DNA of 63,056 nt, the filler included, from Stramenopiles sp. TOSAG23-2 (lineage: Eukaryota): assembly GCA_900128395.1 (NCBI GenBank). It is 40 parts of 40 records of this genome, joined end to end, with 100 filler letters (N's around TTAATTAATTAA, not from the genome) between each part and the next. Parts side by side here need not be neighbours in the genome. Positions count along the whole stretch, not along the records: positions 35,515 to 36,871 come from LT653098.1; 39 more parts are not named here. One strand, given 5' to 3'. Shown one piece after another: positions 4,692 to 57,247 of this stretch (position 1 is its first letter; each line of letters starts with the position of its first letter). A program made the position numbers and the translations under genes. The notes beneath the pieces are model-generated. The model searched no databases. It saw only the letters and a list, made by a program, of their open reading frames with translations, and was not told the DNA's origin.

Positions 4692-5649
4692 ATGGCATCT
4701 TTAACCACTAACCAACCACCTACAAAACGACAACGTACAACAAATGAATCCACCTTGGAAGCGTTACAACAAGAACGGGCACCACCACCAATTGAAATTG
4801 GTATATTGCTTTTACCAGCTGGATTTGAGTCTGCTTGCGGTATAATGACAAAAATATTTCTATATTTAGATATTCGATCATTATGTAATGTAAAACGATC
4901 TTCTTTAATACAGCAATGTAGAAAAGCATTTGGATCAGATGATTTTGAGCGTGTACGTAATGAAGCATTGAGTATTGATTATAAAGGTAGAAGAAGTATA
5001 GATGAGATGATACTTTCACATTCAGCGAGAAGACTTTATTTATTAATTGAAAGATATAAAAGAGAGTTTCCACGTGGTACNNNNNNNNNNNNNNNNNNNN
5101 NNNNNNNNNNNNNNNNNNNNNNNNNNNNNNNNNNNNNNNNNNNNNNNNNNNNNNNATGATGTAGAATTATTTATGAATCTTCATCCTTTTCACAACTATA
5201 TTACTAACTGTGATGTGAACGGCTACAGAGATGATGTGACATTGAAAGATATGGTGAGTCAAGTCGGTAAAGATAGTCGTGGTTTTGATTATACACCTTT
5301 AATGATAGCTGCAGGATACGAACATTTCCAAATAGTTAAATATTTGATTGAACAATGTGAAGCTGATCCTAATATTGCAGATAGTGATGAAGAGAATGCA
5401 TTACATATTGCAGCAACTGAGAACAGCACGAATACTGAGTTGATTGAATTGTTATTAGCTAATATGTCTCTTGATAGTATTAATAAGAAGTCCAGTGGGG
5501 GATCCACTCCCCTGGACTCTGCATATCATAATGAAAGTCCAATTCGCCAAGAGATCATTGCACTTTTACGTTCAAAAGGTGGAAAAGCAAATTGTCATGA
5601 TGAAAATGGTAGTGATGTAGAAGAAGGTAATGGTGATTTAAATCATTAA
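4692..5649 (+). CDS. F-box-like + ankyrin-repeat protein (one gene across the N gap)
   Basis: N-part has F-box-like IMTKIFLYLDIRSLCNV and ends KREFPRG; C-part has ankyrin repeats (YTPLMIAAGYEHFQIVKYL, NALHIAA, TPLD). The paralog at 24288-25208 carries KQEFPQGT and the same ankyrin text in one ORF. Confidence 0.75.
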
Positions 5650-12059: not shown

Positions 12060-12159
12060 NNNNNNNNNNNNNNNNNNNNNNNNNNNNNNNNNNNNNNNNN
12101 NNNTTAATTAATTAANNNNNNNNNNNNNNNNNNNNNNNNNNNNNNNNNNNNNNNNNNNN

Positions 12160-13180
12160 ATGCAATTGAAAGAATTTGGTACGGAGGAACATGTAGATGT
12201 TGGAGAGACATATGCTAGAATGGGATGGACATGTAGTAAGATGTCTAAATATGATCTAGCAATGGAATATTGTATGAAAAGTTTAAAAATACGTTTGAAA
12301 GTATTGGATGAAGGTCATGTTGATGTTGGTGATTCGTATAATGGTATTGCAGGAGTTTATTCTGATAAAGCTGAATATGATAAAGCATTAGAATATTATA
12401 ATAAATCATTAGATATTCGTATAAATAAATTAGGCAAAGATCATACTGATGTTGCACAATCATATAATAATATAGCATTAGTTTATCAATCACAAAATAA
12501 ATATGATGAAGCATTAGAATATTATAATAAATCATTAGATATTTTTATAAATAAATTAGGTAAAGATCATACTAATGTTGCAACATCATATAATAATATA
12601 GGTGAAGTTTATCGAGCACAAAATAAATATGATAAAGCATTAGAATATTATAATAAATCATTAGATATTTATATAAATAAATTAGGTAAAATATTATAAT
12701 AAATCATTAGATATTTTTATAAATAAATTAGGTAAAGATCATACTAATGTTGCAACATCATATAATAATATAGGTGAAGTTTATCGAGCACAAAATAAAT
12801 ATGATAAAGCATTAGAATATTATAATAAATCATTAGATATTTATATAAATAAATTAGGTAAAGATCATACTGATGTTGCAACATCATATAATAATATAGC
12901 AATAGTTTATTATTCACAAAATAAATATGATGAAGCATTAGAATATTATAATAAATCATTAGATATTAAAATAAATAAATTAGGTAAAGATCATACTAGT
13001 GTTGCAACATCATATTATAACATTGGTAACTTATATGAAAATCAATCCAAATACAAAGAAGCATTAGAATGTTACAACAAGTCTTACAATATATGGAAAG
13101 ATAAATTTGGTGATGATCATCAATATACAAAATTTGCAGTACAACAAATACAAAATTGTAAGGATGCATTAGGAGTGTAA
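12160..13180 (+). CDS. 3' part of a TPR-repeat protein (42-aa kinesin-light-chain/NPHP3-type repeats), frameshifted by a 172-bp duplication
   Basis: Repeats YDKALEYYNKSLDI.INKLGKDHT.VA.SYNNI; duplicated unit 12518/12690 shifts the frame; repeats continue to TAA at 13178-13180. Confidence 0.85.
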
Positions 13181-13926: not shown

Positions 13927-14984
13927 TTATTCAATTTCTGAATACACAGGAGCATATCTTTTGCAATATGCTGCACTTACAGGCCTATTTAAATCAAAAT
14001 CATCATCTTGTATTCTGACATAACCACTATAATCTTTACCCAAAATAGCATCACCTCCTGGTGAAAACAATGTTATTTTGAAAATCTCATCAAACTGTTC
14101 TGGGCAATAATCATCAATTATATAAATACGCAATACAGCAGTGTTTTGATTAACACCAAAAGTGATAGTACCAGTTTGCTCTATGTAGTCGCCACATTCA
14201 CCTCTTTCACTTTTGAAAAATTGATGGCATAACTCAACATCTTTTTGTGGCGTACCAATCGCTGTTATGTCACTAGTAGCATATCGAAAGGTCAAAGTTT
14301 TAGATAAGTCTCCCACACGATCAAAAAAAATATCTACAAAGTTCGGATCTTGCTCGCTACTATATTCATTAACTGTTGTTACTGTTTGACGAAAACGCAC
14401 ACGTTCAAATTCTATATTATAAAATGATACTTCTCCAACTTGTTTATGCACTTCTGAGTCCATGCTTGGTTCTTTTGGTGCTCCAGCAAAAACCATATAA
14501 CCTCTTAATGCAACGGAATATCCAAATCTAAAATTATCATCCTTCGTCGGAGATTGCAATTTCATTTTCTCCGTTACATTCCACATACTTGTATCTACAA
14601 TATCACCATTACCAGCTCTGGCCTCCTCTCTGCGCTTGAAAACGTAAACTGACCCAGATCGTGCCGGTTGATCATCTGGCGCAAACCGATGAACAGTACC
14701 GATTCCGGGTGCGCCACCTGTTGGTGTTCTTGAATGTTTACTTTCCGCCGTCGATGGTGCAAAACCACCAGTAGGACGCCATAATTTTTGATTTCTACCA
14801 CCAATAGAATTCCGATTAAAAATATCTACTAGCCTTGCACCTGGTGCACCAACAATGATCATTCCGCTTCCAAAATCAACATCAACGCTGGTACCAAAAC
14901 GATCTAATTCCCGCTTATCCGATGCTTGTAATTTTTGCTCTTCCACCCAATGACAATTTGTAAAACGATCAATATCGCCAATTG
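13927..14984 (-). CDS. 3' part of an FG-GAP repeat + Calx-beta protein
   Basis: FGTSV..IIVGAPG, GSVYVF, FGYSVA..AGAP; then DYIEQTGTITFG, IIDD..EQFDEIFKITL and VRIQDDD. Confidence 0.85.
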
Positions 14985-34969: not shown

Positions 34970-35514
34970 AAGAAAAAATATTTAAAAAATAATATATAAA
35001 AATAAAAATGATCAAAATATTTTAATGCATAATAAAATGGTACGACGTATCAGGAAGTTATCAAATATACGTATCATATACCTTATTAAAATAAAAAAAG
35101 TGTGTACACACTCGCAACAGTATATTAATGCAGCATACGAGTATTTAATTAAATCTAGACTTAAATACTATTACGAAAGAGATTTTTTTTAATACAAAGA
35201 GAAAACAAACCACACATCATGACAGCACTTTTCTGGTGCGGGGCGTGGTTCTGTACTCCTCCTCCTGTATTTCTTTTTTTTTAACTCTCTTCCTCATCTC
35301 CTTCTACAATTGCATCTCCAATTGTACTTAATGAACCTTTAGCTTTACTTCTTGAATTTGATCCATCTCCAAATTCATTTGCCTCTGAATGGGCATTACT
35401 TCGTTTCTTTATATNNNNNNNNNNNNNNNNNNNNNNNNNNNNNNNNNNNNNNNNNNNNTTAATTAATTAANNNNNNNNNNNNNNNNNNNNNNNNNNNNNN
35501 NNNNNNNNNNNNNN

Positions 35515-35793
35515 CACGAACAAGCCGCACCCACACCTGTCCAACCACCCGTTCGACCACCTGCGATAGTATTGCCTCCTGGTGTCTTGCAACCCAACCC
35601 CAACCTGAATTCACCCGTTATACCTCCGTGGATCTCAGCACCTACACCAGCACCAGCACCTACACCAGCACCTACACCACCTACATCAGTACCAATTCAA
35701 TCTGGTATTGATTTAAAAACTATTCATATTTCCTTTGATTTGAACGTTGATCAATCTGAAATATCTAATGGAGTGCTAAAGTTTACAAACTGA
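35515..35793 (+). CDS. 3' end of a Pro-rich protein on the viral contig
   Basis: PAPTPAP repeats; stop overlaps the convergent small gene (dense, virus-like packing). Confidence 0.5.
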   Translation, partial: HEQAAPTPVQPPVRPPAIVLPPGVLQPNPNLNSPVIPPWISAPTPAPAPTPAPTPPTSVPIQSGIDLKTIHISFDLNVDQSEISNGVLKFTN

Positions 35794-35965
35794 ATCTATC
35801 TATGAAATGTTTACCTTTTGACATTCTTTTACTTGGTTTCTTTTTTCTAAATTCAAAGGTCTTGTCATTGAGTGTCTTGACTGTCCATCCGGAATGAATT
35901 GCTAAAAGAATGAAAATGTACTTTACAACATTATCTTTTATACTCTCAACTACACAGTTGTCCAT
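35783..35965 (-). CDS. Small NCLDV-type hypothetical protein
   Basis: KYIFILLAIHSGWTVKTLNDKTFEFRKK resembles the K..FI..A...GWTVK...F.KK proteins of Imitervirales, from recall; ATG at 35965. Confidence 0.6.
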   Translation of the reverse strand: MDNCVVESIKDNVVKYIFILLAIHSGWTVKTLNDKTFEFRKKKPSKRMSKGKHFIDRFSL

Positions 35966-36038
35966 ATAGTAAATTACTATAATATAATAATTTACTTTAC
36001 GCAAAAATTCATTTAAAAAAAAATGTACTTATGGTATA

Positions 36039-36871
36039 ATGAGAACAAAGAGAACAACTACAGAAAAACCAAATAAAAATATAAAAACAAAGAATATTCA
36101 TTCAGCTCTAGACCGCCATTACCAAAAACATTTGGAGGAACTAGTCAATGAACAAGGTAGCGTCAACAAGAAGAAGCAACAACTCAAGAAAAAGAAAATC
36201 GAACACAGTACTACAAATAATCGTCAAATCAAGAATAGTATTGAAAACGACATCAAAGAACTTGAAAAGGATATCACTAGCATAGAATCCGGTGACCGTA
36301 TTAACGATTACGTAATGAACGTAATAGGTATAGTTACAGAATACACAGAGATAAACTTGCAAATCAAAACTGCCTCTGAATCAGAATTAAATACACTTAT
36401 AGATCGTAAAGGCTCTCTAGTACAAGAATATCTCGAAAAAATGAATCTCAACACCAGTAGTACCTTTGATGAAACTACTATGATATGTAAGAATTGTCAT
36501 CAAGACGCATTTGATACCATGGAAGGATTTGTCATTTGTACGAATTGTGGTACCACCAAAGTAACCATCGAAACACATTCAAAAATATCCTTCAAAGAAG
36601 CTCAAGAATGCAACTATAAACCAATATTTACATATCAAAAAAGTTCACACTTTCACGACCATATGAGAGCAATTCAAGGTAAAGAAACTCACGATATCCC
36701 ACAAGAAATCATTGACAAAGTATTAAACGAAATAAACAAACTTCGTGTAACAGAAACAAAAGAACTTACATATACATATATGAGAAATATACTCAAAAAA
36801 CTTAATGAACCAAAATATTACAGATCTATCCCCAGAATCATTTACAAAATATCAGGTATGCAACCATTGTA
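36039..36871 (+). CDS. Viral late transcription factor 3 (VLTF3, poxvirus A2-like), 3' truncated
   Basis: CKNC...GFVICTNCG zinc ribbon, FTYQKSSHF...IQGKETHDIP, and RNILKKLNEPKYYRSIPRIIYKISG. Confidence 0.9.
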
Positions 36872-36971
36872 NNNNNNNNNNNNNNNNNNNNNNNNNNNNN
36901 NNNNNNNNNNNNNNNTTAATTAATTAANNNNNNNNNNNNNNNNNNNNNNNNNNNNNNNNNNNNNNNNNNNN

Positions 36972-38328
36972 ATATCGATTATGGATCGACTTAATAATCT
37001 TACATCAAATGATACTAAAAGGTTTAATTCACAAGATCTAGCAAATATATGTAATGCATACGGAAAATTAGCTCTAAAAACACCAAAACCAATCATAGAT
37101 CAACTTTACAATCTTACATCAAATGATGTAAACAATTTTGAAGCACATGCTGTAAGCAATATAATATTTGCTATGATTTTATCAGATAAAATAGCGGTAC
37201 CTAGTACAATAAGCAATTGTATTGTAGACATACCCGCATCTAGTTTTTCCTTGGAAGATAGTACGCAGCTATATACCGCATATTTGTATTCAAAGTACGT
37301 ATCAACTTCCAAATTAATAGACGATAAATTAGAAAGAAAAATTGTAGAAATAGAAAAATATCTGAATATAGAAAAACTAAGAATTGATCTTGATCCACCA
37401 AAGGTTACCAAAACACAAAAAGACGTATACAACGTATTGCAAAATTCATTAGGATATACAACTATCAAAATGGAAGCATGCATTGCAAAAGTTTTCTTTG
37501 TTGATATAGAAATAAAACATCCATCGCATGGTAATATACTATTAGAAATTGATGGTAGTATCCATGAAACAAGTTTGACCAAAAAAATAACAGATAACCG
37601 TAAAACAGAAATATTAAATGCAATGGGTTATACAAATATTATACGTATTACAAATGATGAATGGAATAAACTAGGTAATACTCTTGATGCACAATGTAAT
37701 TTTCTTACAAATAAAATAATAGAAATTGATTTCAATCCAAACAGAAGTGATACAATCATTTCAAATAGGTTTCCGAGATTAGATCAACCAAAAGCAATAC
37801 CAATTACGAATCGACTAAACAATCTTACATCGGATGATACTAAAAGTTTGGATAGTAACCTCAAGTCAAAATTTAATATACGTAGAAGCGTAGACATTAA
37901 TAAAAAAATGGTTCAGTTGGGAAAGGATGACGATTACGTAATGCTGAGAAAGATAGTTACTAATAATATTGGAGATTTTGACGCCATAAATGTTTCTACT
38001 GCATTTAATATATTGTCTTGGTTGTGTGTGAATCACGATATCGATGATAATCTTTTATATCTTTTAGAAAGGAAAATTGAAATTCATATAGATGAATTTG
38101 AGGAACAACATTTAGCAACGATATGCAATGCATGTGCAAAATTAGGTCGACCAATACCAATATCGATTATGGATCGAATTAGTAATCTTACATCAAATGA
38201 TACTAAAAGGTTCACTTCGCAAGGCTTAGCAATGATATCTAATGCATATGCAAAACAAGATCAATCAATACCTATATCGATTATGGATCGACTTAATAAT
38301 CTTACATCAAATGATACTACAAGGTTTA
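36972..38328 (+). CDS. OPR-like 38-aa helical-repeat protein with a RAP domain (internal fragment)
   Basis: 38-aa unit ISIMDRISNLTSNDTKRFTSQGLAMISNAYAKQDQSIP; RAP motif VDI...LLEIDGSIH...K..IL..MGY..IRI..DEW. Confidence 0.8.
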
Positions 38329-41342: not shown

Positions 41343-42578
41343 AGCAGAAGACGTCATACGAGAAATGCAACAACTGCAAGTAAATATAATTTAAAAGATC
41401 AACAAACTGTTGCGGTGAAAGTAAACTCGCCAAGAAATACTACAACATTTTGTGATATGTACGTGAAAGTTCAAAGTGGAAACGAAAATGGAGATGATTC
41501 GATACAAGTATATTTAGATACAGATGAAACTGGGTCTTGTGTCCTAGTGGATGCGGTTAGTTATGATTTATATACTCAAAGTTATGATGGAAATAATATG
41601 ATTCAACTGACACATGTATTGCGTACTGATGCAGGCGTTGCACCAGTACGTCAAGATCGTGTATGGAGTGTTGAAGAAGTTGATAGAGAATTTAAACAAA
41701 CTTTTCCAGTAAGAACTTTTCCAATTGGCAATACAAAAGGATCGCAGAAAACATATCCTATTGCCGATGACAATGCGGATTCTTTTGGTTTACAAACTTT
41801 AGTTAGCAACAAACATATACATGTTTCACCTGAAGACTTATATGCAATGTTTGGAGATGGGCATCGTTTGACACCTATGAAACCAATTGGTGGTGGGATG
41901 CCAATGATGTTGGCTCGGTTTTTTGGTTTTGCTAGTAAAGAAAAATTAACTATACGCAATATTGAAACTGGACAAGAATTAAATAATGTGACCATTCTTG
42001 GGCCACCACGTGTTCGTACGCAAATTGAATTAGCATATTCTGATTTAGTAGATGTAGGTTTACAAAATGATACACCAACTCGTATTAGTGGTGATAACCT
42101 TTCATCTGGAAAATGTATTTTAATACCGCATAACGATGATGGTTCGTTAAATGAAGAAGGTGCTATTAATTTAAAACAAGGTGCTGTGAGGGCATGGCGT
42201 CATATTCATTATGCTGGTAAAGCTGCACAGGGTGGAGATTTTATGACGGTATGTGTAGAAAGTGAGCATTGTACAACAATGTTTCATGATATATTAGTGC
42301 GAGTTGGACAAGATAAACGTGATGCAAATGCCCCAGATCCGAATCCACCATTTTGGATGAAGGCAGCAAAATATGCAGCTTTATCTATTTTTATGCCAGT
42401 TTTCCTAATGATGGGTGGAAGTATTGGCTTTAACAGTAATATGATTCATGTAGATACAGATGAAGGAAATGCTTGTAATATTGGACAAGCAAAAGGTTTT
42501 ACATTGTACAATCAAGATTTAAAAAGTGGTGAATTGAAATTTATTGGTAGTACGAAAAATAGTATGGCCAAAATGTAA
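41343..42578 (+). CDS. pduL: PduL-type phosphotransacylase, tandem domains, 5' truncated
   Basis: SNKHIHVSPEDLYAMFG.GH.L, VTILGPPRVRTQIELA.SD, P.RISGD, GAVRAWRHIH, FHDILVRV and MIHVDTDEGNA; frame is open from 41343. Confidence 0.88.
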   Translation, partial: SRRRHTRNATTASKYNLKDQQTVAVKVNSPRNTTTFCDMYVKVQSGNENGDDSIQVYLDTDETGSCVLVDAVSYDLYTQSYDGNNMIQLTHVLRTDAGVAPVRQDRVWSVEEVDREFKQTFPVRTFPIGNTKGSQKTYPIADDNADSFGLQTLVSNKHIHVSPEDLYAMFGDGHRLTPMKPIGGGMPMMLARFFGFASKEKLTIRNIETGQELNNVTILGPPRVRTQIELAYSDLVDVGLQNDTPTRISGDNLSSGKCILIPHNDDGSLNEEGAINLKQGAVRAWRHIHYAGKAAQGGDFMTVCVESEHCTTMFHDILVRVGQDKRDANAPDPNPPFWMKAAKYAALSIFMPVFLMMGGSIGFNSNMIHVDTDEGNACNIGQAKGFTLYNQDLKSGELKFIGSTKNSMAKM

Positions 42579-51533: not shown

Positions 51534-52888
51534 TTGTAGTATCCAGCCGGAACTAGTTGACTAATATACATTTGACCAGTAGCTGCATCAATGTAAAAGT
51601 AGGCATTTGAATTTCCGGAAATAATTTCAAAAGCATGGTTTTGATTTCGATCTTGATCATAAAATACGATGGGCTTCCCAACTTTACTGCCCGCAGTAGA
51701 TTTACTATAAATACTTCTTTCCTGTACAGCCATCGATGGTTCCTCATTGGCATCTAATAGATGCGTAATAACCTTTGCAGTTGCTTTCAAACCATCACTG
51801 TCTGTTGCAGATACTTCCATATTAAACTTTTTACTTGATGAGGTTTCATAGTCTAAATCACTAGTACCACCACCAGATGCACCAGAAAATTTAACGTTAT
51901 CTATTGCAAACGATTCATCATTTTTATTCTGATTTAATGTTGTATAGACTTTAACCACTGCATTGTTTCTAGTAACTTTGGTACTGCATTTTGCACTTAC
52001 CTTTGAATCTTTCCATCTTTTATTACTTCCAGTTCCACAAACATCGTTTCCATTTCTAGTGTAGATCTTTCTACTAGTCCAACATGTGACACCATTTATA
52101 GAAATTTTAGCTACTTCTCCGTCCCAAGAATCGATTGCAAGTAAATCAAGTGTCAAATCATATATAGTCCCTGCAACTAAACCGGTGAAAGTTTTTTCAA
52201 TTGTCGCATCTTTCCCTTTTTGACCGTAGCCCCCGCAAATGTTACCATAGGAACCGCAACTGGTAATAGCACCACATGACCATCCATCCAAATTGCTATT
52301 TTCAAAATTTGATAGCAAACGATTAGAATTTTTCACAACAAGTTGGCCGCTTGCAGAACCTAATGAAAATGGCACGCCAGATGACTCTAATTTGTACGTA
52401 ATAATTTCATCGTCATCAGGATCAATCGCTTTTATAGGATCCCCAACGTTTACGCCATCCGGTGTATTTTCAAATACAGAATATTCATATTTTTTCAACA
52501 TTGTTGGTGCTTCATTGACATTTAGAATGTACACATTTACTTTTGAAACGGATGTTCTCCGTGGAAAACCGCTATCAATAATTCTTACCTTTAAAGTATA
52601 TTTGTTGATTTTTTCAAAATCCAATTGTTTTACAGTTGCATATAAAAGCCCAGATGATTCATCTATGCTAAATGCATTTTCAACATTTCCGCCAATTAAT
52701 TTATAAGTAATTTGGTTATGGAACATATCAGGATCTACTGCTGAAATTGCTGAGGATACCAATGCAGTGGTATCTGAATTGCATTTTAACAATATTGTTT
52801 TACGATCAATTGTTGATTTGCTTTGGCCACTGACGCATGTATGGTAGTTATTTCCACCCCCTTCAACGTCGCAACCTTTTTCTCCTTT
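51534..52888 (-). CDS. Internal fragment of a cadherin-repeat protein
   Basis: DPD, LDFE/LDYE, NVNEAP/DANEEP and VFEN calcium-binding motifs over about 3 repeats; an inserted Cys/Gly domain containing IDSWDGE. Confidence 0.88.
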
Positions 52889-55521: not shown

Positions 55522-55912
55522 AAGGAAGAGAGAGAGAGACAGGGGTAAAAAATAAATATATGATAAAAAAGTCTTCTTTTGTGTGTTGTTATAACTGCTT
55601 CTTATTCTTTTTTGGATACTAATACGTATCAAAATCCGAACCGCCTATCAAATGACAATAATTTATACTTGAAATGGAAATTAGAATATCAAAAAATTAC
55701 GCATCACAAATGAATTTTGATGAAAATAATTTATTAATAAATACAAAGTTTCTTCAGAGTAAGAGAGATAGTCGTCTATATATGTGTAGATTGTNNNNNN
55801 NNNNNNNNNNNNNNNNNNNNNNNNNNNNNNNNNNNNNNTTAATTAATTAANNNNNNNNNNNNNNNNNNNNNNNNNNNNNNNNNNNNNNNNNNNNCTGTAA
55901 TATATATAATTA

Positions 55913-57247
55913 ATGTCCAATAAATTTTTATCATCACAGGGAAATAATGATATCATAGGTTTTTTAAAAAACAATGTAACGGAAGCTAGAAGTGCTATTC
56001 AATTAATACCTAATGCTCACATTCAAGCTTATGATGCTACTTTACAAAGTTTAGCTAATTTATCGACTACAAATAATAAATTAATTAAGAGCACCGGAAC
56101 GGACCAATTTACTACTATTAGCATTTCAAGTCACGGTGAGACAGCTTTAGTCAGCAATGAAGCCTTATTAACAAATAGTGATTTATCTAATTATGTAACT
56201 TCAACATCATTAACAACGACATTAAATGATTATGTTTTAACGACAGCACTAAATACAACATTAGCTTATTATTCCACTACGGCTAGTATTAATACTACAT
56301 TAAATGATTATGTTTTAACGACAGCATTAAATACGACATTAGCTGATTATTCCACTACGACTAGTATTAATACTACATTAAATGATTATGTTTTAACGAC
56401 AGCATTAAATACAACATTAGCTGATTATTCCACTACGGCTAGTATTAATACTACATTAAATGATTATGTTTTAACGACAGCATTAAATACGACATTAGCT
56501 GATTATGTAACTACTAATACAGCACAAGATATAACAGAAGTGAAAACGATAAAAAATGATTTTGTTATAGACCAAAATAATTCTGGTGAATTACAATTTC
56601 ATTTATCATCAGGCTTACCTCCTTCCAATAAAATAACAAAAATAGTTGCTGTAGAACACGCTTCTACATCTTCCCCAATCACTTTATCTTTGCCCTCTGT
56701 TAAGTCTGGAGCAACAAGCGACCAATTAGTTAGTTTAAATGCTATACAAACATTAACAGGTAAAACATTAACCTCTCCAATTATTTCTGCAATTACAAAT
56801 GGAAGTGCTACATTAACTTTACCAACTTCAACCGGAACAATAGCATTAACAAGTGATATTGGTGGTGGTTTATCCGCAAGTGATAATATAGATTTTACTG
56901 GAACAATAACTTTTACTTCTGCTCCTACCATAAGTGGAAATGCTTTATTAAAAGCAAATGATAATATTAGTTTATTAAACAACAATAGTGGGTTTATTAC
57001 AAATACCGCAAATGCTTTTAGTTATAGTAATTTAAGTGGAAAACCAACTATACCAACTAATAATAATCAATTGACGAATGGTGCTTCTTATATTACAAGT
57101 GCTTCATTAACTAATTATGCTACGGCAAATAATACTTTTACAGGTTCTCATAAAATCAATAATTATGATTTAAATAATAATGCTGAAATAGAGTTTATGA
57201 GTTATACTGCTGGTGTAAATAGTGCGGATAAAGTGGTGTTAAGAAAT
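55913..57247 (+). CDS. Virion fibre/tail-fibre-like protein, 3' truncated
   Basis: 78-bp (26-aa) tandem repeat LNDYVLTTALNTTLADYSTTASINTT x~3.6 from 56222; QTLTGKTLTSP, TLTLPTSTGTIALTSDI and YSNLSGKPTIPTNNNQLTNGASYIT. Confidence 0.65.

Follow-up and report, generated by a model that had tools for sequence, protein, structure and literature searches.

In poxviruses, VLTF3 is a zinc-ribbon transcription factor that is required to turn on late genes. According to an excerpt of PMC13524828, VLTF3 (GVOGm0890) is a standard marker of the Nucleocytoviricota, and in the portions of two 2026 preprints drawn on here it is used, together with the major capsid protein (MCP) and A32, as a marker that survives even in reduced lineages. 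Uncultured viruses can be linked to uncultured hosts by few routes, one of them being giant-virus fragments found in protist assemblies that are fragmented or derive from single cells. Here we describe a candidate fragment of this type in a stretch of 63,056 bases, 40 joined contigs from the assembly of Stramenopiles sp. TOSAG23-2 (GCA_900128395.1), which we refer to as the window. Our subject is contig 22 (LT653098.1), which makes up exactly the range 35515-36871, is contained whole (1357 bp) and carries a VLTF3-like gene beside a small, divergently oriented gene. Judged from its sequence, this DNA is very probably of Nucleocytoviricota origin and belongs to a poorly sampled lineage. To meet a piece of giant-virus DNA among protist contigs is not unexpected; this one adds a new member to a kind already known.

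Contig 22 is filled by three reading frames, namely the VLTF3-like late transcription factor gene on the plus strand, the small gene, here called the 'GWTVK' gene, on the minus strand, and the 3' end of a chitinase-like gene on the plus strand. The VLTF3-like gene (36039-36871, +) is represented by its 5' 277 codons, an open reading frame (ORF; 36039-36869) that is stop-free up to the contig end; full-length relatives measure 367-372 aa, and the protein encoded here is without the last ~93 residues. The VLTF3 motifs noted in the original prediction are borne out by a hidden Markov model (HMM) search, the test it had proposed, in which the ORF matches Pfam PF04947 (Pox_VLTF3) with E = 3.2e-16 and 59.9 bits, the cut-off being 25. 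This alignment takes in the first half of the domain (36624-36866, +; aa 196-276, profile positions 5-84 of 168), since the contig ends at codon 277. N-terminal to the domain lies a CxxC...CxxC zinc ribbon (36486-36548, +) with Cys150, Cys153, Cys167 and Cys170. These four cysteines are invariant in two alignments, A1 (11 sequences, VLTF3 of contig 22 among them) and A4. All columns invariant in A1 fall within the region covered by contig 22, whose VLTF3 keeps every one of them. The TFIIB-type ribbon model of Pfam (Zn_Ribbon_TF) scores 23.6 bits over aa 148-172, which is under its cut-off of 29, and a profile search of the PDB gave a weak match to the TFIIB ribbon 1pft (E = 0.076), beyond which the PDB sequence search with VLTF3 yielded nothing.

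A word-index search of 5.8 billion proteins with VLTF3 as query resulted in 10 matches at E ≤ 0.001 among 679 candidates, all of them PF04947 proteins. Hereof P0004-P0006 (367-372 aa) are 59-64% identical across 100% of the query, and the other significant matches are 24-33% identical. VLTF3 aligns from residue 1, end to end, with environmental VLTF3 proteins of 367-435 aa, and the nearest Atlas clusters are PF04947 clusters of the Nucleocytoviricota (score 0.93), which we treat as a lead only. No match to VLTF3 was found in the phage collection searched, and a PHROGs search with all three proteins of contig 22 returned nothing meaningful. A scan of IMG/VR with the single VLTF3 protein gave 62 pattern matches, none of which was confirmed; the alignment-based scan recovered at least 480 stretches encoding relatives, and the best 80 loci, many of them on named contigs from metagenome-assembled giant-virus genomes (GVMAGs), were used. 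When VLTF3 was compared with these environmental giant-virus loci, a check that the original prediction had suggested, it grouped apart from them. In a quick maximum-likelihood tree of 89 rows, which includes long rows and is to be read with caution, it forms a 5-member clade with P0004, P0005, P0006 and P0192 (Shimodaira-Hasegawa-like approximate likelihood ratio test, SH-aLRT, 100). In alignment A4, VLTF3 of contig 22 and P0004-P0006 are 27-29% identical to the VLTF3 of locus L057, compared to 32-42% for most other clades. Going by the aligned proteins, it is safe to state that this VLTF3 lineage is distinct and thinly sampled; its branching point is not part of the claim.

The second line of evidence comes from the small 'GWTVK' gene (35783-35965, -), which comprises 60 codons from the ATG at 35965-35963 to the TAA at 35785-35783 (ORF 35786-35965) and encodes a protein with an isoelectric point of 9.9. 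A single-sequence phmmer search against all 6561 six-frame ORFs of at least 40 aa in the best 80 VLTF3 loci revealed relatives in 9 of these loci, with E-values from 3.9e-7 (L070) to 0.066, and the same 9 were retained after three rounds of profile iteration as well as with a later, deeper profile. A leave-one-out family profile in turn recognises the small protein with 34.6 bits (E = 2.5e-10), the next ORF of the window (≥50 aa) having E = 0.75. When a profile of ten proteins was run against 1.84 billion cluster representatives, 942 clusters were obtained at E ≤ 0.001 and 313 at E ≤ 1e-10. Family members are mostly 60-100 aa long; a few contain two matched stretches within 106-225 aa, and P0047, P0052, P0065, P0084, P0130 and P0162 are tandem two-domain members of 120-225 aa. 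The protein of contig 22 is at most 37% identical to any of 120 aligned members, and a word-index search with it recovered itself alone. Its nearest Atlas clusters are 100% viral and assigned to the Nucleocytoviricota (score 0.88), again a lead only. The ten-protein alignment found no Pfam family except one match at chance level, ten clusters that were looked up are annotated as 'hypothetical protein' or carry no functional name, and our literature searches found no paper naming the family or a VLTF3/small gene/MCP cluster, which does not prove that none exists. The profile matches place the small gene in a widespread family of giant viruses, 'GW[ST][VI]K', which is large and has no name. Its earlier description as a divergent small gene of nucleocytoplasmic large DNA virus (NCLDV) type thus holds for the divergent GWTVK protein itself and is too narrow as a label, as the family is large and has a conserved place beside VLTF3.

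This place is seen in the related loci. On contig 22 the small gene and VLTF3 stand head-to-head, with 73 nt from ATG to ATG, and the same orientation is found in 7 of the 9 related loci with ATG-to-ATG gaps of 72-182 nt; in L074 it is kept across a gap of 679 nt, and in L045 the small gene lies downstream. The nine loci are scattered over several separate VLTF3 clades. Directly after the small gene, on the same strand, an NCLDV MCP gene (PF04451 and PF16903, 148-205 bits) follows in L016, L072 and L018. One ORF separates the small gene from the MCP gene in L071, and in L054 a family search of the locus record places an MCP gene just downstream on the same strand. A second scan of IMG/VR, seeded with an alignment of 13 small proteins, gave at least 548 stretches, of which the best 80 loci were taken; since all of them are close to the L057 type (69-100% identity), these loci are not independent. 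Within this set VLTF3 lies upstream on the opposite strand in 78 of 80 loci, at a distance of up to 400 nt in 28 of them, of 401-1000 nt in 42 and of more than 1000 nt in 8, and an MCP gene follows within 1.5 kb downstream in 71 of 80; among the 49 loci whose flank measures 2.5 kb or more, 47 have it. VLTF3, the small gene and MCP thus form a conserved block, of which contig 22 contains the first two members and not the third, and the head-to-head pair, which the MCP gene usually follows in the relatives, therefore belongs to a conserved neighbourhood of late and virion genes. As further features of these loci, L016 (3077-5647) carries two tandem MCP paralogues, a class II aminoacyl-tRNA synthetase gene (PF00152, 180.7 bits) adjoins VLTF3 in L018 (5297-6868), and L057 (6519-7721) encodes a member of the Porphyromonas-type peptidyl-arginine deiminase family (320.8 bits).

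Contig 22 is compactly packed, with an 11-nt convergent overlap at one side of the small gene and the 73-nt divergent gap at the other. Every item listed in the original prediction was found where it had been placed. The overlapping stops proved to be the 11-nt overlap of two convergent genes, the small gene (TAA 35785-35783, -) and the chitinase-like gene (TGA 35791-35793, +). The gap of about 70 nt with a TATAATG start context was measured as a divergent intergenic region without strand at 35966-36038 (73 nt, 85% A+T), in which TATAATG at 36035-36041 runs into the VLTF3 start. The A/C-rich coding strand was confirmed as well: A+C amounts to 0.63 in the VLTF3 frame, which is rank 1 in a set comprising the window's 31 longest frames (≥200 aa, one per contig), the remaining frames having 0.514 ± 0.044, and C occupies 0.20 of its third positions compared to 0.10 ± 0.05 in the others. 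This outlier is real but modest, about 2-2.6 standard deviations on a single gene. The plus strand of the whole contig consists of A 0.40, C 0.21, G 0.13 and T 0.26, and its G+C content of 0.339 lies inside the range of the window's contigs (0.258-0.421). The spacer at 35966-36038 presumably carries the promoters of both genes. A near-palindrome at 35958-36006, with arms of 24 nt that are 79% complementary and 1 nt apart, spans one half of the spacer along with the beginning of the small gene; it may represent a shared promoter or regulatory element. An Rfam search of contig 22 gave no match.

The third frame is the 3' end of a chitinase-like gene (35515-35793, +), which is cut by the contig start and comprises 92 codons plus TGA (frame 35515-35790). 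It encodes a Pro/Thr/Ala-rich linker followed by a conserved C-terminal tail that ends in ...NGVLKFTN. The fragment itself has no Pfam match. Its sole significant relative is P0198, a protein of 540 aa with a glycoside hydrolase family 18 domain (PF00704, GH18), which one source names a chitinase; the frame aligns with 51% identity to residues 452-540, the extreme C-terminus. Hereby, the tail ...IHISFDLNVD.SEI.NGVLKFTN is nearly identical in P0198, and the last four residues before the stop are the same. Among the metagenome contigs of the Joint Genome Institute (JGI), a search with P0198 found one 29%-identical relative only, which is without the tail. That the chitinase-like gene is viral is probable, a reading based on its tight convergent overlap with the small gene only; such an overlap would fit viral gene packing.

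To evaluate what the small protein might do, AlphaFold2 models were built with family alignments. The model of the contig 22 protein (predicted local distance difference test, pLDDT, 76.5) contains a helix at residues 3-24 and a beta-hairpin formed by 27-31 and 37-41, while that of an 81-aa relative (pLDDT 81.6, predicted template modelling score 0.64) contains a helix at 22-36, a hairpin at 40-51 and a second helix at 63-73. The hairpin is rich in lysine, and its segment is basic throughout the family, with a median net charge of +4 and a range from 0 to +9 in 109 sequences. A profile search of the PDB with the family came back empty. Within BFVD, the top nine matches for both models include small, uncharacterised proteins from Faunusvirus, Indivirus and Bodo saltans virus, and those of Harvfovirus and Mimivirus LCMiAC01 each stand fourth, each with one model only; we take all five to be Mimiviridae-type viruses. 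The Foldseek probabilities of these matches are 0.91-1.00, except for the contig 22 model against Bodo saltans virus (0.33), and with E-values of 0.016-1.3 they serve as leads. The tandem two-domain members hint that the single-domain small protein acts as a dimer. From the basic hairpin, the tandem forms and the fixed place between a transcription factor gene and a capsid gene we infer a dimeric accessory protein, which would bind nucleic acid, or VLTF3 itself, in late transcription or packaging. Binding of nucleic acid as such is a tentative prediction that we consider somewhat doubtful. The small gene and the gene order of contig 22 furthermore resemble those of Mimiviridae-like (Imitervirales) viruses.

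Taken together, giant-virus origin as originally predicted is supported because VLTF3 passes the HMM search and because the family of its small neighbour sits, in IMG/VR, beside VLTF3 and the NCLDV major capsid gene. The reading that we prefer is that contig 22 is a giant-virus genome fragment, assembled together with DNA from a eukaryotic cell of low G+C content, and we regard it as highly probable. Several observations weigh against this interpretation or parts of it. The contig holds a single hallmark gene, which is truncated, and the search of the other window contigs that the original prediction had called for turned up no NCLDV hallmark: MCP, PolB and A32 are absent from contig 22 and from the other contigs scanned (a Pfam scan of 36 ORFs on 35 of the remaining 39, four with short frames only being left out), and when all ORFs of the window were compared by blastp with the 80 viral loci, extra matches were obtained only to generic RING, ankyrin and MORN proteins. 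Unlike the related IMG/VR loci, contig 22 has no MCP gene after the small gene, which is followed by the convergent chitinase-like gene. A viral origin of P0198 could not be shown, this protein being absent from the IMG/VR scan. The 5-member VLTF3 clade is set apart from all 84 other rows by a stem of 4.16 changes per column, and its position in the quick tree is not fixed; owing to this very long branch, the placement at order level rests on the small gene and on weak fold matches. The function of the small protein is pure inference from models and gene order. Its fold has no Foldseek match in the PDB at E ≤ 0.001, and the best hit, to METTL16 VCR/KA1 domains with a VIA Z score of 4.4, was rejected as within noise. 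The motif AAAATTGA, which we take to be the Mimivirus-type early promoter, was rejected as evidence, too: the 80 related loci show no enrichment of it (it ranks 120th among 168 words of the same composition), and contig 22 has one near-match, AAAATTCA, 35 nt upstream of the VLTF3 ATG. Finally, nothing in contig 22 demonstrates unintegrated DNA, and two public protein records, described below, point to endogenisation or assembly trouble.

Other readings of the same DNA have to be weighed against the one that we prefer. An origin from a mirusvirus or another non-NCLDV element with a VLTF3-like gene would be in line with the statement of the original prediction that mirusviruses have VLTF3, and an excerpt of PMC10132985, which does not state the group, counts VLTF3 among the hallmark genes compared. 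However, the relatives of both the small gene and VLTF3 adjoin NCLDV double-jelly-roll MCP genes, and the nearest Atlas clusters belong to the Nucleocytoviricota. Because of this synteny, and because Mirusviricota are described in the excerpt of PMC13524828 as being without most Nucleocytoviricota hallmark genes, we disfavor the mirusvirus origin and consider it very improbable. A different question is the physical state of the viral DNA. Infecting, ingested and endogenised virus, the three states named in the original prediction, cannot be told apart on a contig of 1.36 kb. As three frames are open over 1.36 kb and the composition is a mild outlier, we lean slightly, and tentatively, towards a viral genome that is not integrated or was acquired very recently, and away from an old endogenous insert.

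Contig 22 could instead be part of a giant endogenous viral element (GEVE) in the protist nuclear genome, with its genes intact because the insertion is recent or because the genes are still in use. Endogenous giant-virus DNA is widely reported in protists, according to the portion of PMC12455990 drawn on here, and the G+C content of contig 22 does not depart from that of the other contigs. One DNA run, X1, contains 0.43 of the sampled words of contig 22, two further runs of the same study containing hardly any, although this does not prove that it is absent there. In X1 three short assembled pieces cover 36141-36751 without differences, joints or loose ends, and their word depth of 2.4-5.8 is low, without the excess of a replicating virus; contig depths are, however, a poor measure, and these pieces say nothing on copy number or junctions. 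An identical small protein (P0014) is recorded on a public (Logan) contig of 3170 nt, and P0191, a 48-aa VLTF3 C-terminus of the same clade that shares 43 of 48 residues with P0006, is recorded on a Logan contig that likewise measures 3170 nt, whereas no whole VLTF3 of this virus is found in the collection of 5.8 billion proteins. Candidate causes are a gene that is broken, chimerism of the contig or an artefact of gene calling. Against an endogenous element stand the lack of any host flank, intron, repeat or transposon on contig 22, the three open frames with every invariant residue of the covered part of VLTF3 retained, the undisturbed overlap and promoter region, and the outlying third-position C and strand A+C compared to other contigs; we judge it unlikely, yet worth keeping in view. 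Slightly less likely still is that genuine viral DNA is present without any biological tie to the cell, having come from a co-sorted or attached particle, from a prey-borne virus in a food vacuole or from carry-over between samples. That only 1 of 40 window contigs is viral, and that this contig is short and thinly covered, would fit such a source; however, 63 kb of an unknown total cannot reveal how much viral DNA the assembly contains.

Apart from contig 22, the window looks cellular and eukaryotic in its gene content. It is not one molecule; the contigs are arranged in order of length (the first of 6207 bp, the others from 1363 to 1352 bp) and joined by 39 identical 100-nt artificial linkers of 44 N, TTAATTAATTAA and 44 N, so that ORFs or features crossing a linker are artefacts. 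Contig 22 is flanked by two of these non-biological, strandless linkers (N44-TTAATTAATTAA-N44), at 35415-35514 towards the preceding and at 36872-36971 towards the next contig, and the first contig contains an internal gap of 75 N at 5081-5155. Families encoded elsewhere include peptidase C1-like, PhyH, TPR, XK-related, FH2, TRM13, ankyrin and MORN proteins, as well as RRM, pseudouridine synthase, RCC1, cadherin, FG-GAP/Calx-beta and RING proteins. A cadherin-domain ORF (81 bits) and an FG-GAP/Calx-beta ORF fill two contigs (51536-52888 and 13930-14982); going by their domains, these are adhesion-type extracellular proteins of the cellular part of the assembly. At 12160-13180 a TPR_12-rich protein is split into the overlapping frames 12112-12699 and 12686-13180 with the same units repeated, which suggests that the assembly contains a frameshift or has collapsed a repeat here. 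A contig-long frame at 36972-38328 shows weak RAP, DUF559 and REase_MTES_1575 endonuclease-like matches in its middle and 'MDRLNNLTSNDTKRF' motifs repeated at both ends. Another, at 55895-57247 (446 aa), contains a 78-nt (26-aa) tandem repeat of 3.7 copies with 96% match (...LNDYVLTTALNTTLADYSTT.SINTT...) and has no Pfam or PHROG match; it could encode a viral or cellular repeat protein of the surface or fibre-like type. The ORF at 41343-42575 carries a strong PTAC domain (phosphate propanoyltransferase, PduL-type, 125.9 bits), and as this is chiefly a bacterial enzyme family, a bacterial contig or a gene transfer is possible.

Since the VLTF3 lineage has almost no sampled relatives, a confirmed link to the cell would give this lineage a host. 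The most useful by-product of the analysis is the small unnamed family itself, with at least 942 clusters and no Pfam entry, which, in divergent giant viruses, is kept beside VLTF3 and the capsid gene. It is a concrete candidate for a factor still missing from the picture of late gene expression or virion assembly, and can easily be tested in cultured relatives. In its most far-reaching form, the interpretation would join these strands: contig 22 and four environmental proteins would represent a deep, undescribed Nucleocytoviricota lineage, absent from IMG/VR at >38% identity and tied to an uncultured protist cell, whose basic 60-aa helix-hairpin protein binds nucleic acid as a dimer and is a partner of VLTF3, with which it has been inherited head-to-head on one bidirectional promoter since before the Mimiviridae-like clades split. 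That all of this should hold at once is rather improbable; if true, it would make the small protein an unrecognised core component of giant-virus late transcription.

Compared to the known systems, contig 22 can be placed as follows. With the GEVEs of protists it shares the presence of giant-virus genes within a eukaryote assembly, whereas no host junction, erosion or mobile-element invasion is visible in its 1.36 kb. Its VLTF3 differs from the PF04947/GVOGm0890 proteins of the Nucleocytoviricota in that the first 277 of ~370 residues are present and in its low identity to the best 80 IMG/VR relatives (21-38% on best segments), but it matches them in scoring above the HMM cut-off and in carrying the ribbon directly before the domain. 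With the VLTF3/small gene/MCP neighbourhood of IMG/VR giant viruses, contig 22 has in common the head-to-head pair and its short AT-rich spacer. The small protein is the shortest form when set beside its Mimiviridae-like counterparts from Faunusvirus, Indivirus ILV1, Harvfovirus, Bodo saltans virus and Mimivirus LCMiAC01, with a helix region at the C-terminus that can hardly be recognised (KHFIDRF). Nevertheless, these proteins of 59-104 aa are 17-36% identical to it in fold alignments, and the consensus ...KM.F.YNAL..GW.VKK...Y.F.K.H..KKE...D.YL..F is common to both.

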